Assembly (NCBI RefSeq): GCF_054482525.1
Contig: NZ_CM137006.1
Direction: 5' to 3' (one strand)
DNA length: 64,000 bases
Numbering within the stretch: position 1 is the first letter of the stretch; every line of letters begins with the position of its first letter. The translations under genes were made by a program, and so were the position numbers. The notes beneath the pieces were generated by a model, which was not told where the DNA came from, did not search any database, and saw nothing but the letters and a program-made list of their open reading frames with translations. Of this stretch, positions 4,622 through 56,976 are shown one piece after another.

Positions 4622-5005
4622 TTAACGCTTCTCCCAGCCGCCCTGTTGTGCCGTAAACCCCAGTGCCTGCATAAACGCCGTCATCACACCGCGATCTTCC
4701 ACGCCTGCATCCGCCATCCACCAGCATGAAACGCCAGGATTGTTACGCAAAACCTCTTCCAGCAGATATTGCCCCACACCGCGACGGCGGGTGACTTCCC
4801 TAACACGCAGGGAATCCAGTGCGCCCTCCGTGCCGCTTAAGGTTACCCGCACGGCCGCGAGAAGGCGCTCGTTAAAACGCGCGGCGTAGATACGGTGGTT
4901 ATCGTCAACCTGTAACGAGGAAGGGGAATACTCCGGCCAGATCTTTTGCAGGTCAATCCGGTCCTGGTCGCTAAAGTTTTCTAATCGAATGATGGTCAGC
5001 TTCAT
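4622..5005 (-). CDS. panM: PanD maturation factor PanM (GNAT fold)
   Basis: 127-aa ORF MKLTIIRLENFSDQDRIDLQKIWPEYSP; located between livJ and livK as in K-12 (yhhK). Confidence 0.88.
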   Translation of the reverse strand: MKLTIIRLENFSDQDRIDLQKIWPEYSPSSLQVDDNHRIYAARFNERLLAAVRVTLSGTEGALDSLRVREVTRRRGVGQYLLEEVLRNNPGVSCWWMADAGVEDRGVMTAFMQALGFTAQQGGWEKR

Positions 5006-10413: not shown

Positions 10414-11321
<908 letters not shown>

Positions 11322-11845
11322 TCCAGGAGATGCTCCTGCATGGCTTTCAGATATGCATTTTCTGCGCGAAGATAACGCAGCTCATTCTTCATCTCTTCCG
11401 GCGTCATGTTTGCCTCGTTTTCATGGGTATCATCAGAACGGGTCATGCTTTTCTCCTTCCTGCGCCTGATAAAGGCCTCATTACCAGATTTGCGGTAGCC
11501 TTTTATCCAGTTTTTAACCGTGTTGTGGCTGGGAATGTTAAACCGGGCAGCTACCCGGGGTAGAGACTCAGAATGCCCGAGAGCATAAAGAACCACGCAA
11601 AGTTTATCTTCAGGAGAATAGCTACGCTTGTGTCTGCAATCCAGTGCCCGAGGACCGTGAAGAAGAAAAAGATTAATCCAGTGTGAGAGGCTGGTGTGAG
11701 AAAGTTGAAAGAGTTTTGCCGTAGAAATGATGCCTGCATGACCAGCCAGGTAGTGATTTACAGCGGCAAGTTTTACTTCAAATGAATGTTTCATAAACTG
11801 CACCTTCAGATGTCAGATTATGTCCAACATTTGGGGTGCAGTTCA

Positions 11846-20090: not shown

Positions 20091-20180
20091 GCGATCAGGA
20101 AGACCCTCGCGGAGAACCTGAAAGCACGACATTGCTCACATTGCTTCCAGTATTACTTAGCCAGCCGGGTGCTGGCTTTT
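20091..20180 (+). ncRNA. ryhB: iron-responsive small RNA RyhB
   Basis: Sequence matches RyhB as recalled (gcgatcaggaagaccctcgcggagaacctgaaagcacgacattgctcacattgcttccag...); ends in intrinsic terminator ccagccgggtgctggctttttttt. Confidence 0.92.
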
Positions 20181-20301
20181 TTTTGATCTTTCGTTTTCAA
20201 TTTATCCACGGGAAGTGCTTGTGTTCGTTATGCGCACTCCAGTAGGAACCACGTCCGCTTTGCGCTAAGGTGTAAATAATCACCTTAAAAAGGACGAAAT
20301 C

Positions 20302-22380: not shown

Positions 22381-23376
22381 ATGAAAAAGAAAAGACCCGT
22401 ACTTCAGGATGTGGCTGACCGTGTAGGCGTGACCAAAATGACGGTCAGCCGCTTTTTGCGTAACCCGGAGCAGGTTTCCGTCGCTCTACGCGGCAAGATT
22501 GCCGCCGCTCTTGATGAACTGGGTTATATTCCCAATCGCGCACCCGATATCCTCTCTAACGCCACCAGCCGGGCGATTGGCGTCCTGTTACCTTCTCTCA
22601 CCAACCAGGTTTTCGCGGAAGTATTACGCGGAATCGAAAGCGTCACCGACGCGCACGGTTATCAGACCATGCTGGCCCACTACGGTTATAAACCGGAAAT
22701 GGAGCAAGAACGCCTCGAATCAATGCTCTCATGGAATATCGACGGACTGATCCTCACCGAACGTACCCACACGCCGCGCACCTTAAAGATGATTGAAGTG
22801 GCGGGGATTCCGGTGGTGGAGTTGATGGACAGCAAGTCGCCGTGCCTCGATATTGCCGTCGGTTTTGATAACTTTGAAGCGGCACGCCAGATGACCACCG
22901 CCATTATTGCTCGCGGGCATCGCCACATTGCCTATCTCGGCGCACGTCTCGACGAACGTACTATCATCAAACAGAAGGGATACGAACAGGCGATGCTGGA
23001 TGCAGGCCTGGTGCCATATAGCGTGATGGTTGAGCAATCTTCTTCTTACTCTTCCGGTATTGAACTGATTCGCCAGGCGAGGCGGGAATATCCGCAGCTG
23101 GATGGCGTGTTCTGTACTAATGATGACCTGGCGGTCGGCGCGGCGTTTGAATGCCAGCGTCTGGGGTTAAAAGTTCCTGACGATATGGCGATTGCCGGTT
23201 TCCATGGTCATGACATTGGTCAGGTGATGGAACCACGGTTGGCGAGCGTACTGACGCCGCGTGAGCGGATGGGCAGTATTGGCGCTGAACGCCTGCTGGC
23301 GCGTATTCGTGGCGAATCTGTGACACCGAAAATGTTAGATTTAGGTTTCACCTTGTCACCGGGCGGATCTATTTAA
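22381..23376 (+). CDS. gntR: gluconate repressor GntR (LacI family)
   Basis: 331-aa ORF with N-terminal HTH VLQDVADRVGVTKMTVSRFL. Confidence 0.94.
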   Translation: MKKKRPVLQDVADRVGVTKMTVSRFLRNPEQVSVALRGKIAAALDELGYIPNRAPDILSNATSRAIGVLLPSLTNQVFAEVLRGIESVTDAHGYQTMLAHYGYKPEMEQERLESMLSWNIDGLILTERTHTPRTLKMIEVAGIPVVELMDSKSPCLDIAVGFDNFEAARQMTTAIIARGHRHIAYLGARLDERTIIKQKGYEQAMLDAGLVPYSVMVEQSSSYSSGIELIRQARREYPQLDGVFCTNDDLAVGAAFECQRLGLKVPDDMAIAGFHGHDIGQVMEPRLASVLTPRERMGSIGAERLLARIRGESVTPKMLDLGFTLSPGGSI

Positions 23377-23456
23377 GCCCACAAATTTGAAGTAGCTCAC
23401 ACTTATACACTTAAGGCACGGATGGATATTGCTTCTGATATTGTCCGGCTGGACAA

Positions 23457-23485
23457 TGTTACCGATAACAGTTACCCGTAACATT
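23457..23485 (+). promoter_or_regulatory. GntR operator palindromes in the gntK promoter
   Basis: atgttaccgataacagttacccgtaacat. Confidence 0.7.
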
Positions 23486-23514: not shown

Positions 23515-24042
23515 TTGAGCACGACTAACCATGATCACCACATTTACGTTCTGATGGGCGTCTCAGGCAGCGGCAAATCTGCGGTCGCCAGTGAAGTGGC
23601 GCATCAACTTCATGCCGCGTTTCTTGATGGCGATTTCCTCCATCCGCGCTGCAATATCGAAAAAATGGCGTCTGGCGAACCGCTGAATGACGACGATCGC
23701 AAACCGTGGTTGCAGGCGCTGAACGACGCCGCGTTTGCTATGCAGCGCACTAATAAAGTGTCGCTGATTGTCTGTTCTGCACTGAAAAAACACTATCGCG
23801 ACCTGCTACGCGCGGGTAATCCGAATCTCTCGTTCATCTACCTGAAAGGCGATTTTGATGTGATTGAAAACCGCCTGAAAGCGCGCAAAGGCCATTTCTT
23901 TAAAACCCAAATGTTGGTGACGCAGTTTGAAACGCTGCAGGAGCCGGGTGCGGACGAAACCGATGTACTGGTGGTAGATATCGATCAACCGCTGGAAGGT
24001 GTTGTGGCAAGCACCATTGAGGTTATTAAAAAAGGCAAATAA
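23515..24042 (+). CDS. gntK: thermoresistant gluconokinase GntK
   Basis: 175 aa from a TTG start (LSTTNHDHHIYVLMGVSGSGKSAV); track ORF began at an upstream ATG. Confidence 0.88.
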   Translation: MSTTNHDHHIYVLMGVSGSGKSAVASEVAHQLHAAFLDGDFLHPRCNIEKMASGEPLNDDDRKPWLQALNDAAFAMQRTNKVSLIVCSALKKHYRDLLRAGNPNLSFIYLKGDFDVIENRLKARKGHFFKTQMLVTQFETLQEPGADETDVLVVDIDQPLEGVVASTIEVIKKGK

Positions 24043-24045
24043 GTA

Positions 24046-25386
24046 GTGACTACATTAACGCTTGTTTTAACAGCAGTAGGGTCTGTTTTACTGCTGCTGT
24101 TTTTAGTCATGAAGGCGCGTATGCACGCTTTCCTGGCTTTGATGGTGGTGTCCATGGGGGCTGGCCTTTTTTCCGGTATGCCGCTCGATAAAATCGCAGC
24201 GACGATGGAAAAAGGGATGGGAGGCACCCTCGGCTTCCTGGCGGTGGTTGTCGCCCTGGGAGCTATGTTTGGCAAGATCTTACATGAAACCGGCGCAGTC
24301 GATCAGATTGCCGTCAAAATGCTCAAATCCTTCGGTCACAGCCGCGCACATTATGCCATCGGCCTTGCGGGGCTGGTTTGTGCACTACCGCTGTTCTTTG
24401 AAGTGGCGATTGTTCTGCTGATTAGCGTTGCTTTCTCAATGGCGCGCCACACCGGTACGAACCTGGTGAAGCTGGTAATCCCATTATTCGCAGGCGTGGC
24501 GGCCGCGGCTGCGTTCCTGGTGCCTGGACCAGCGCCAATGCTGCTGGCATCGCAGATGAATGCCGACTTTGGCTGGATGATCCTGATTGGCCTGTGTGCG
24601 GCAATTCCGGGAATGATTATTGCCGGGCCGCTGTGGGGTAATTTCATCAGCCGCTACGTGGAGTTGCATATTCCTGACGACATCAGCGAACCACATCTCG
24701 GTGAAGGCAAAATGCCGTCCTTCGGATTCAGCCTGTCGCTGATCCTGTTGCCACTGGTGCTGGTGGGGCTGAAAACCATTGCCGCGCGTTTTGTGCCAGA
24801 AGGCTCTACCGCTTACGAATGGTTCGAGTTTATTGGTCATCCGTTTACCGCGATTCTGGTTGCTTGTCTGGTAGCGATTTATGGCCTGGCAATGCGTCAG
24901 GGCATGCCAAAAGACAAAGTGATGGAGATTTGCGGTCACGCGCTGCAACCGGCGGGGATCATTCTGCTGGTGATTGGTGCAGGCGGCGTGTTCAAACAGG
25001 TGCTGGTTGACTCTGGCGTAGGTCCGGCACTGGGCGAAGCGTTAACCGGCATGGGCCTGCCGATTGCCATCACCTGCTTCGTGCTGGCAGCTGCAGTGCG
25101 CATCATTCAGGGTTCTGCCACCGTTGCCTGTTTAACGGCGGTGGGACTGGTGATGCCGGTTATTGAACAACTGAACTATTCCGGAGCGCAAATGGCGGCG
25201 CTGTCGATTTGTATCGCCGGTGGTTCGATTGTTGTCAGCCACGTTAACGACGCCGGTTTCTGGTTGTTCGGTAAATTTACCGGCGCGACTGAAGCCGAAA
25301 CACTGAAAACCTGGACCATGATGGAAACCATCCTCGGCACTGTCGGTGCCATCGTTGGGATGATTGCGTTCCAGCTGTTGAGTTAA
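24046..25386 (+). CDS. gntU: low-affinity gluconate transporter GntU
   Basis: 446-aa polytopic ORF starting at GTG (MTTLTLVLTAVGSVLLLLF). Confidence 0.9.
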   Translation: MTTLTLVLTAVGSVLLLLFLVMKARMHAFLALMVVSMGAGLFSGMPLDKIAATMEKGMGGTLGFLAVVVALGAMFGKILHETGAVDQIAVKMLKSFGHSRAHYAIGLAGLVCALPLFFEVAIVLLISVAFSMARHTGTNLVKLVIPLFAGVAAAAAFLVPGPAPMLLASQMNADFGWMILIGLCAAIPGMIIAGPLWGNFISRYVELHIPDDISEPHLGEGKMPSFGFSLSLILLPLVLVGLKTIAARFVPEGSTAYEWFEFIGHPFTAILVACLVAIYGLAMRQGMPKDKVMEICGHALQPAGIILLVIGAGGVFKQVLVDSGVGPALGEALTGMGLPIAITCFVLAAAVRIIQGSATVACLTAVGLVMPVIEQLNYSGAQMAALSICIAGGSIVVSHVNDAGFWLFGKFTGATEAETLKTWTMMETILGTVGAIVGMIAFQLLS

Positions 25387-37087: not shown

Positions 37088-37381
37088 ATGGAAAGAATAA
37101 TGCAAAACAGAAAATGGATTTTGACCTCGCTGGTAATGACTTTTTTCGGCATCCCCATTCTGGCGCAGTTTTTGGCGGCGGTTATTGCCATGCTGGGGGC
37201 CGGGCTTGCCGCTATTCTTGAGTTTTGCAATTTACTCTTAACGCCAACAATTTATCTTCTACTCAACGTCTTTATGCTGACGCTGGGCGCATTACTGCTA
37301 TTTTTCTCTGGGCGAGTGGGTAATGTGTCTGAGTTTTGTTACGTTGGGAATAATGGCGTGGGCTTTGCGGTAATTCCCTGA
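37088..37381 (+). CDS. small hydrophobic hypothetical protein (yzgL-like position between glgP and glpD)
   Basis: 97-aa ORF MERIMQNRKWILTSLVMTFFGIPILAQFLAAVIAMLGAG; no motif recognised. Confidence 0.35.
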   Translation: MERIMQNRKWILTSLVMTFFGIPILAQFLAAVIAMLGAGLAAILEFCNLLLTPTIYLLLNVFMLTLGALLLFFSGRVGNVSEFCYVGNNGVGFAVIP

Positions 37382-37424: not shown

Positions 37425-37522
37425 TGCCGGATGCGACGTGAACGTCTTATTGGCCTACAAAATCATGCAAATTCAATACATTGCATAAGCCACGTAGGCC
37501 TGATAAGCGTAGCGCATCAGGC
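37425..37522. repeat. BIME: two inverted REP/PU copies
   Basis: gccggatgcgacgtgaacgtcttattggcctac ... gtaggcctgataagcgtagcgcatcaggc. Confidence 0.8.
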
Positions 37523-39142: not shown

Positions 39143-39202
39143 ATTAGCAAAGAATCGCGCTTTAGGTAACATTGAAAAAACATTTTAGAGTGATATGTAT
39201 AA

Positions 39203-39607
<405 letters not shown>

Positions 39608-53173: not shown

Positions 53174-54490
53174 TCAAATCACCATATTCAGCAGCAGACA
53201 GCCTACCAGACCGCACACCGAGATAATGGTTTCCAGCATCGACCAGGATTTGATGGTCTCGCCGATAGTCAGGTTAAAGTACTCTTTGAACAGCCAGAAG
53301 CCCGGATCGTTCACATGAGAGAAAATCACACTACCGGAACCAACCGCAATAACCATCAGCTCCGGGCTAACACCCGTCGTTGCAATCAGCGGTGCCGCGA
53401 TACCACCCGCAGTGATTGCCGCAACGGTTGCGGAACCCAGCGCGATACGCAGTACGGCAGCAATCGACCAGGCCATCAGCAGCGGAGAAATGTTGGTTTC
53501 GTGCATCATGGAAGCAATGTATTTGTCCACGCCGCTGTCTACCAGCACCTGCTTGAACGCACCGCCACCACCGATAATCAACAGCATCATCGCAATGATT
53601 TTGATGGAAGAAACCAGCGTGTCGTTAATCTGATCCATTGAACGACCACGGTTTAGACCAAAGGTGAACATCGCAATCAGCACGGCAATCAGCGTTGCCA
53701 TTACCGGGTCACCGAGGAACTCCGCTACCGGCAGGAAAGCGTGACCTTTCGGCAGGATCATTTCGGCAATCGCACGCATCGCCATCAGTACAACCGGCAC
53801 CAGAGAGGTCCAGACGCTGACGCCAAAGCTCGGCATCTCTTCTTCGCTGAAGGTTTTCGCGCTGTAGAGACCTTCCGGAATTGGCTTATCGATACCTTTC
53901 AACACGCGAGCGTAAACCGGACCGGCGAGAATCACGGTCGGGATTGCCAGAATAGTACCGTACAGCAGGGTTTTACCCATATCGGCATTGAAAATGGTGG
54001 CAATCGCAGTCGGACCCGGATGCGGTGGCAGGAAGCCGTGGGTTACAGACAGTGCAGCCGCCATTGGTACACCAACATACAGCAGTGGAATATTCGCGGA
54101 AGCCGCGATGGTAAACACCAGCGGCAGCATCAGCACGAAACCCACTTCATAGAACAGGGCAAAACCAACGGTAAAACCGGTCAGTACCACCGCCCACTGG
54201 ATGTGTTTTTTACCAAATTTAGCAATCAGCGTGGTGGCGATACGTTGTGCGCCACCGCAGTCTGCCAGCATTTTGCCCAGCATTGCGCCAAAACCCATGA
54301 TCAGGGCAAGGCTACCGAGCGTTCCGCCGACACCGGCTTTGATGGAGCCAATAACTTTATCCAGCGGCATTCCTTGCATTAATCCAACAGCAAGCGCCAC
54401 GAGGACGAGAGCGATGAAGCCGTTCATTTTGAAACGGATCATCAGGAGCAACAACAAGATTACACCGATAGCAACAATGACTAATGGCAT
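53174..54490 (-). CDS. gntT: high-affinity gluconate transporter GntT
   Basis: 438-aa polytopic ORF, paralogue of gntU in the same window. Confidence 0.93.
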   Translation of the reverse strand: MPLVIVAIGVILLLLLMIRFKMNGFIALVLVALAVGLMQGMPLDKVIGSIKAGVGGTLGSLALIMGFGAMLGKMLADCGGAQRIATTLIAKFGKKHIQWAVVLTGFTVGFALFYEVGFVLMLPLVFTIAASANIPLLYVGVPMAAALSVTHGFLPPHPGPTAIATIFNADMGKTLLYGTILAIPTVILAGPVYARVLKGIDKPIPEGLYSAKTFSEEEMPSFGVSVWTSLVPVVLMAMRAIAEMILPKGHAFLPVAEFLGDPVMATLIAVLIAMFTFGLNRGRSMDQINDTLVSSIKIIAMMLLIIGGGGAFKQVLVDSGVDKYIASMMHETNISPLLMAWSIAAVLRIALGSATVAAITAGGIAAPLIATTGVSPELMVIAVGSGSVIFSHVNDPGFWLFKEYFNLTIGETIKSWSMLETIISVCGLVGCLLLNMVI

Positions 54491-54644
54491 GATTTACCTG
54501 GCCTTTCATTTGTTATGGGTAACGTCAATTTTCTGACGACAAACTCTAATTATCCCAATCGGGAACAGAGATATTGCGGCACCACGACTGATACCCACTA
54601 AAACTAATTATTGTAGTCAGATGTCAGGAGTATGTTTGGTACCC

Positions 54645-54666
54645 ATGTGAATGATACGGGTAACAT
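54645..54666. promoter_or_regulatory. GntR operator in the gntT promoter
   Basis: atgtgaatgatacgggtaacat shares the ATGTTACCCGT half-site with the gntK operator. Confidence 0.65.
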
Positions 54667-54794
54667 CTGGCGTTTGAGAATCACCAGAGCGGGGTAAATT
54701 TAAATTATGAGAGGTTGGTCATATTATCGCGGGGAAACGAAGGGAGGGATTTGCCAAAGCAATGCTGCGCCAACGTCTGGCACATGTTCAACGT

Positions 54795-54849
<55 letters not shown>

Positions 54850-54850
54850 T

Positions 54851-55426
54851 TTAGTAGTAGGAGTGCTCGCCGCGCTGGTGTTCGGTGAGATCGCGCACAC
54901 CTTTCAGCTCCGGGAATTCGTTCAGCAGCTGCTTCTCGATCCCTTCTTTCAGCGTCACATCTACCATAGAACAACCGTTACAGCCGCCGCCAAATTGCAG
55001 AATGGCGTAACCGTCTTCGGTGATTTCCATCAGCGAAACGCGACCACCGTGACCAGCAAGCTGTGGGTTGATCTGCGACTGCAGCATATACTCCACGCGC
55101 TCCATCAGCGGTGCATCGTCTGCGACTTTACGCATTTTGGCGTTAGGCGCTTTCAGCGTTAACTGGGAACCCAACTGGTCTGTAACAAAGTCGATCTCTG
55201 CATCTTCCAGGTAAGGAGCGCTTAACTCATCAACATACGCGGTCAGCAGGTCAAATTTCAGGGCAGTGTCGGTGGCTTCCACAGCGTCCGGCGGACAATA
55301 AGAAACGCCACATTCAGCGTTAGGCGTGCCAGGGTTAATCACAAATACGCGGATTTGTGTCCCTTCTTCCTGATTTGCCAGCAGTTTGGCAAAGTGCGCT
55401 TGTGCAGCATCGGAAATACGGATCAT
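54851..55426 (-). CDS. nfuA: Fe-S cluster carrier protein NfuA
   Basis: 191 aa; C-terminal CxxC ([19 protein letters not shown]). Confidence 0.94.

Positions 55427-55484: not shown

Positions 55485-56976
<1,492 letters not shown>

Follow-up and report, generated by a model that had tools for sequence, protein, structure and literature searches.

Work on the GntI regulon of Escherichia coli (gntR, gntKU and gntT) and on its operators goes back to the late 1990s. The gntR gene is expressed constitutively. GntT and GntU are the high- and low-affinity gluconate transporters of Gnt-I, respectively (gene table, PMC6199705), and the same naming by affinity appears in source names. At gntKU, GntR sites that overlap at a spacing of about 13 bp have been described as functional and conserved (PMC4052901, citing Tsunedomi 2003a), while the idn sites are also recognised by GntR (PMC4052901). 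These operator sequences already serve as synthetic-biology parts. In human cells, ATGTTACCGATAACAG was used as a site through which GntR responds to gluconate, the published consensus ATGTTACCCGTAACAT also gives gluconate-responsive GntR binding, and the response is abolished by deletion of the site or by a 2-bp insertion at its centre (PMC10450161). In a cell-free purified circuit, ATGTTACCCGTATCAT was used as the "16bp E. coli GntR operator"; gluconate relieves the repression, and the TATCAT within this sequence serves as the -10 hexamer (bioRxiv 10.1101/2023.01.10.523462).

Here we describe four sites of this kind in a 64-kb stretch of E. coli DNA and conclude that they are almost certainly operators of the GntI gluconate regulon, bound by GntR. 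As GntR operators of gntK and gntT they are real, conserved and already known, to the point of being textbook knowledge. The main value of the analysis lies in correct annotation: a half-site attributed to both promoters is not shared, the operator is 16 bp long, and a second gntT operator is added.

Gluconate genes of the window

The window (the whole stretch of DNA that was analysed, 64,000 bases) is the reverse complement of positions 3,728,206-3,792,205 of E. coli PCN033, with 8 mismatches. Its segment 22300-25400 is 100% identical to that strain; among 5,426 complete genomes of E. coli, 5,424 match this segment. The gntRKU segment shows 95-99% identity to most E. coli genomes. The gene assignments below rest on open reading frames, the PCN033 RefSeq annotation and Pfam, except for nfuA, which is taken from the RefSeq annotation.

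22381-23376, plus strand: gntR, gluconate repressor of the LacI/GalR family
23515-24042, plus strand: gntK, gluconokinase, with a TTG start
24046-25386, plus strand: gntU, Gnt-I low-affinity gluconate permease
53174-54490, minus strand: gntT, Gnt-I high-affinity gluconate permease
54851-55426, minus strand: nfuA

The repressor is encoded by a 331-aa ORF with a LacI HTH domain (PF00356) and a sugar-binding Peripla_BP_1/3 domain (PF00532/PF13377), and the GntR-type winged helix (PF00392) gave no Pfam match in this protein. It is a member of the LacI/GalR family and shares only its name with the GntR protein family, so that the name misleads about the protein family. GntK is a P-loop kinase by Pfam, and both permeases match GntP_permease (561 bits for GntU, 629 bits for GntT). 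The gntK and gntU genes lie directly downstream of gntR, and gntU begins 3 bp past gntK, which suggests that the two are co-transcribed and places gntU under the control of the gntK promoter only. With gntT 31 kb from gntRKU and on the opposite strand, the window holds, as the first-pass annotation had proposed, the repressor together with its high- and low-affinity transporter targets, gntU being reached through the gntK promoter.

Near gntT, neither nfuA (Fe-S biogenesis protein) nor gntX (55485-56168, minus strand) has a product annotated with a gluconate function; despite its gnt name, gntX is annotated as a DNA utilization protein. A matrix scan of the window (described below) gave no GntR-type site upstream of either gene.

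Several other features were recorded in the window. The small RNA RyhB lies at 20120-20184 (plus strand) between yhhX and yhhY (Rfam RF00057, 83 bits, full length), and a match to the ES036 (CssrF) sRNA family lies at 37459-37501 (plus strand; 46.8 bits against an Rfam gathering score of 37.6). The latter sits between the 3' end of glpD and a pseudogene fragment of a phosphate ABC transporter substrate-binding protein, annotated at 37097-37318 (plus strand) between glgP and glpD. An IS1397 (IS3-family) transposase gene with a programmed frameshift occupies 10446-11794 (minus strand) between ugpB and livF. K-12 is not known to carry an IS1397 at this position, and the element is probably a strain-specific insertion.

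Two overlapping operators at the gntKU promoter

The motif common to the gntK and gntT loci is the 16-bp ATGTTA-N4-TAACAT. Upstream of gntK, the 29-mer atgttaccgataacagttacccgtaacat had been assigned to 23457-23485 and read as a single palindromic operator. The sequence is present, although one base upstream of that assignment, at 23456-23484, and it is loosely palindromic (24 of 29 bases self-complementary) but made up of two overlapping operators. These, termed A and B, share 3 bp, and their centres are 13 bp apart. The features of this region are as follows, with mismatches of operators counted against the 16-bp consensus and matrix ranks taken over the whole window.

23386-23401 (centre 23393.5), no strand assigned: CRP-like site TTTGAAGTAGCTCACA, 1 mismatch to TGTGA-N6-TCACA
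23429-23434 and 23452-23457, plus strand: putative gntK core promoter, -35 TTGCTT and -10 GACAAT with a 17-bp spacer
23456-23471, no strand assigned: gntK operator A, ATGTTACCGATAACAG, 1 mismatch, matrix score 18.1, rank 3
23469-23484, no strand assigned: gntK operator B, CAGTTACCCGTAACAT, 2 mismatches, matrix score 16.5, rank 4

Conservation was assessed in 79 distinct sequences upstream of gntK, drawn from about 80 species of Enterobacteriaceae. Mean identity across these sequences is 0.95 in the operator block (23456-23484), 0.72 just upstream of it and 0.49 in the adjacent downstream leader. The 14-bp core of operator A is invariant in 77 sequences, and 75 contain the full composite ATGTTACCGATAAC[A/T]GTTACCCGTAACA with the 13-bp register unchanged; even its "spacer" bases are fixed across Enterobacteriaceae. 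Of the four exceptions, three carry one to three base substitutions and one has the element displaced by an insertion. Variation within the block is concentrated at two positions: 23470, the symmetry axis of the composite, which is A or T, and 23484, the last base of operator B, which is A in 67 of the 75 intact composites and T in 6, Escherichia among them.

A generic sigma-70 scan called no plus-strand gntK promoter, because the hexamers TTGCTT and GACAAT match only 7 of 12 positions. The two hexamers and their 17-bp spacing are kept in 77 of the 79 sequences, with variable bases in the spacer. This arrangement would place transcription initiation near 23464-23465, with operators A and B spanning roughly -9 to +20, and points to a weak, probably CRP-dependent promoter. 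The CRP-like site has a mean identity of 0.84 across the 79 upstream regions, and an identical sequence has been listed, by weight matrix, as a potential gntKU CRP site (PMC2395238). Counted from the putative start, its centre would lie near -71.5, and class I CRP-dependent promoters were defined here by TGTGA-N6-TCACA centred near -61.5 or -71.5.

The 29-bp composite may represent a distinct operator class on which GntR binds in a non-canonical way, a reading that we regard as unlikely. Two dimers might sit on faces of the DNA that are almost perpendicular to each other, with distortion of the DNA, or they might use alternative registers that exclude one another. Such a binding mode has already been remarked on as unexplained in roughly 110 operons regulated by LacI-family proteins (PMC4052901).

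We consider it very unlikely that the block instead acts as one long palindrome, be it a cruciform, an RNA leader hairpin or the site of one larger complex. Its self-complementarity would suit this, as would the position of its main variable base on the axis at 23470 and the argument that dimers 13 bp apart cannot interact, for which an unusual binding mode was suggested (PMC4052901). However, either 16-bp half is scored as a GntR site by itself, operator A suffices without B for GntR binding that responds to gluconate (PMC10450161), and gntT uses well-separated single sites with the same motif. The hairpin version finds no support in the predicted RNA fold, which is unremarkable (-5.4 kcal/mol, z=-0.63), 56 of 200 shuffled sequences folding equally well or better.

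Two separated operators at gntT

At gntT, the string atgtgaatgatacgggtaacat was found at 54645-54666, exactly where the first-pass annotation had placed it. The GntR operator within it is real but comprises 16 of the 22 bases: these 16 form operator O1, invariant in all four Enterobacteriaceae sequences compared, while bases 54645-54650 are not conserved. A second operator, O2, absent from that annotation, lies in the leader just ahead of the ribosome-binding site, 35 bp before the gntT start codon and 141 bp downstream of O1.

54708-54723 (centre 54715.5), no strand assigned: CRP-like site, 2 mismatches to TGTGA-N6-TCACA
54651-54680, minus strand: promoter-like site from the sigma-70 scan (9 of 12 positions), -35 TTCTCA at 54680-54675, 18-bp spacer, -10 TATCAT at 54656-54651
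54651-54666, minus strand: gntT operator O1, ATGTTACCCGTATCAT on the gene strand and ATGATACGGGTAACAT on the plus strand, 1 mismatch, matrix score 20.4, rank 1
54510-54525, minus strand: gntT operator O2, ACGTTACCCATAACAA on the gene strand and TTGTTATGGGTAACGT on the plus strand, 2 mismatches, matrix score 20.0, rank 2

The final six bases of O1 are the predicted -10 hexamer TATCAT, and different genera also keep the -35 block GGTGATTCTC. Both half-sites of the CRP-like site are conserved in the four-genus alignment, and its centre would lie at about -71.5 from the putative transcription start, predicted near 54644. O1 and O2 stand out as conserved islands in upstream DNA that has otherwise diverged among gntT orthologues. 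Both are identical in the gntT loci of P0010, whose protein is 93% identical, and P0015 (source name Kosakonia); in the locus of P0030 (named Shimwellia), O1 is likewise unaltered, and O2 carries a single change at its centre.

Orthologues of gntT named Pantoea, Yersinia and Brenneria carry two GntR-type sites 14 bp apart upstream of the gene. In these loci (L091, L092 and L093, respectively), which fall outside the core Enterobacteriaceae sequences, the closely spaced pair replaces the 141-bp arrangement of O1 and O2. It lies about 127-141 bp upstream of gntT in L091 and about 185-216 bp upstream in L092 and L093 (Brenneria izadpanahii CP050854.1). A gntK-like kinase gene is divergently oriented to gntT in L092 and L093, and one operator pair may therefore serve both genes.

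Between nfuA and the gntT promoter we also noted a REP-like imperfect palindrome, gcccgatgcgacgctaaagcgtcatttcgggcctac, at about 54797-54835, which is absent from the other genera of the alignment; it is followed by a terminator-like hairpin at 54784-54766.

Specificity of the motif in the window

The gntK and gntT promoters had been linked by the half-site ATGTTACCCGT, said to occur in both. This is incorrect, as only gntT has the word (54656-54666, minus strand), where it gives the single match in the whole window when one mismatch is allowed; the nearest words at gntK, ATGTTACCGAT and CAGTTACCCGT, each differ from it at 2 positions. The longest word common to the two intergenic regions is instead the 10-mer GTTACCCGTA, which is included in the 16-bp motif (P=0.084 by shuffling), and the best pair of 16-mers, AGTTACCCGTAACATT and TGTTACCCGTATCATT, agrees at 14 of 16 positions (P=0.019). 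The pairwise likeness of the two promoters is, by itself, marginal.

The signal is stronger at the level of the motif. With up to 2 mismatches, ATGTTA-N4-TAACAT has five matches in the 64 kb against 1.8 expected, and four of the five are in the gntK and gntT promoters, where they fit the operator pattern with 1, 2, 1 and 2 mismatches in A, B, O1 and O2, respectively. At 3 mismatches, the 24 matches in the window are indistinguishable from the 18.2 expected by chance. The fifth 2-mismatch match, GTGATATGTATAACAT at 39190-39205 between glpD and glpE, was set aside as a chance occurrence, as it scored 9.25 (rank 14) with the weight matrix described next.

Since the consensus was originally derived from these same gluconate genes, we built a weight matrix from sites outside the window to lessen the circularity. 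The training set comprised three consensus matches of K-12, two at edd and one at idnD/idnK (ATGTTACCGGTAAAAT, TTGTTACGCGTAACAA and ATGTTACGCATAACGT), chosen by a consensus scan; we take these to be GntR/IdnR sites, a status that PMC4052901 supports for idn. The four sites took ranks 1-4 of the 64 kb, with scores of 20.4, 20.0, 18.1 and 16.5, against a next score of 14.0 and a mean best score of 13.3 in simulated windows. Only 0.065 sites scoring at least 16.45 were expected in 64 kb, and four were observed, all of them in the gntR-gntK and nfuA-gntT intergenic regions. Moreover, a matrix trained on either promoter finds the sites of the other as its best matches beyond the training sites. The next-best matches of the outside-trained matrix, at 4740 (in panM) and 11112 (in IS1397), are inside the null range and were rejected. 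The same scan found no GntR-type site upstream of gntR and thus no evidence of autoregulation, which fits its constitutive expression.

The weight-matrix scan that the first-pass annotation had proposed as a check on a common GntR motif at gntK and gntT thus bears out that motif: similarity between the promoters is borderline when only the pair is compared and highly non-random when the motif is scored, and a simple matrix cleanly separates four real sites from the background of the window. All four are also phylogenetic footprints across Enterobacteriaceae.

The closest paralogue of GntR is IdnR, and the two overlap in DNA specificity and have sites in common (PMC4052901; PMC2395238), the idnD/K site resembles those of the window, and a matrix derived in part from it scores the window sites highly. 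These points would suit sites that mainly serve IdnR/GntH or another LacI-family protein, with GntR secondary, a reading to which we attach very little probability. The annotated gntR gene lies directly upstream of the gntK operators, GntR alone suffices with these operators in heterologous settings without IdnR, both in human cells and in a purified cell-free system, and cross-binding by GntH adds to GntR control without replacing it. Exclusive control of the sites by IdnR/GntH is therefore unlikely.

A merely coincidental resemblance of AT-rich promoter DNA with no common factor, to which the weak pairwise statistics and the chance-level scan at 3 mismatches might point, is effectively refuted by the four top matches of the outside-trained matrix against 0.065 expected, by the conservation of all four sites as islands across genera and by published constructs in which precisely these sequences act as operators for GntR.

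A model for GntR control of the two transcription units

Nothing met in the analysis contradicts the assignment of the four sites to the GntI regulon. The observation of the first-pass annotation is partly confirmed, and its biological interpretation is supported. In the model that we propose, GntR, a dimeric repressor of the LacI family, would bind the 16-bp ATGTTA-N4-TAACAT sites. At gntKU, operators A and B would cover the putative -10 hexamer and transcription start, so that GntR on these sites would block the polymerase. The predicted -10 hexamer of gntT lies within O1, and GntR bound there would exclude RNA polymerase, with O2 as an auxiliary operator in the leader that may loop with O1. 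Peekhaus and Conway are said to have found in 1998 that both gntT operators are required for full repression, and to have proposed looping.

Gluconate would bind GntR and cause it to leave the DNA, a step for which both the binding and the gluconate response are taken from the published work. At each promoter, the CRP-like site some 71 bp ahead of the putative start would add catabolite control through activation by CRP-cAMP. A single, constitutively expressed repressor could in this way co-induce two separate transcription units that between them encode the kinase and both transporters.

Comparison with known systems

The window agrees closely with the GntI regulon of E. coli K-12. Its ATGTTACCGATAACAG and ATGTTACCCGTATCAT are identical to K-12 GntI operators (Porco 1997, Izu 1997, Peekhaus and Conway 1998 and Tsunedomi 2003a, as cited in PMC10450161 and PMC4052901), and the gene order, the sequence of the CRP-like site and the overlapping gntKU pair with its 13-bp spacing are the same. 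We found no substantive difference between the two, although the strain of the window is PCN033-like and not K-12. Elsewhere in E. coli, the sites at edd and idnD/idnK have the same motif as those of the window, with the idn site also used by IdnR.

The GntR family in the sense of Bacillus subtilis GntR (PF00392) has the same name and the same role as a gluconate repressor, but differs in fold and in operator type. Solved DNA complexes of LacI-family proteins offer no counterpart of the 13-bp spacing at gntK, which does not correspond to a whole number of helical turns (PMC4052901). In other respects, the sites of the window resemble the LacI/GalR operators (lacO, galO and the purF operator), with a 16-bp palindrome, half-sites of the GTTAC/GTAAC type, a dimeric HTH-plus-hinge repressor and release by a small-molecule inducer, and the auxiliary downstream operator of gntT, 141 bp from O1, recalls the looping of lac and gal.
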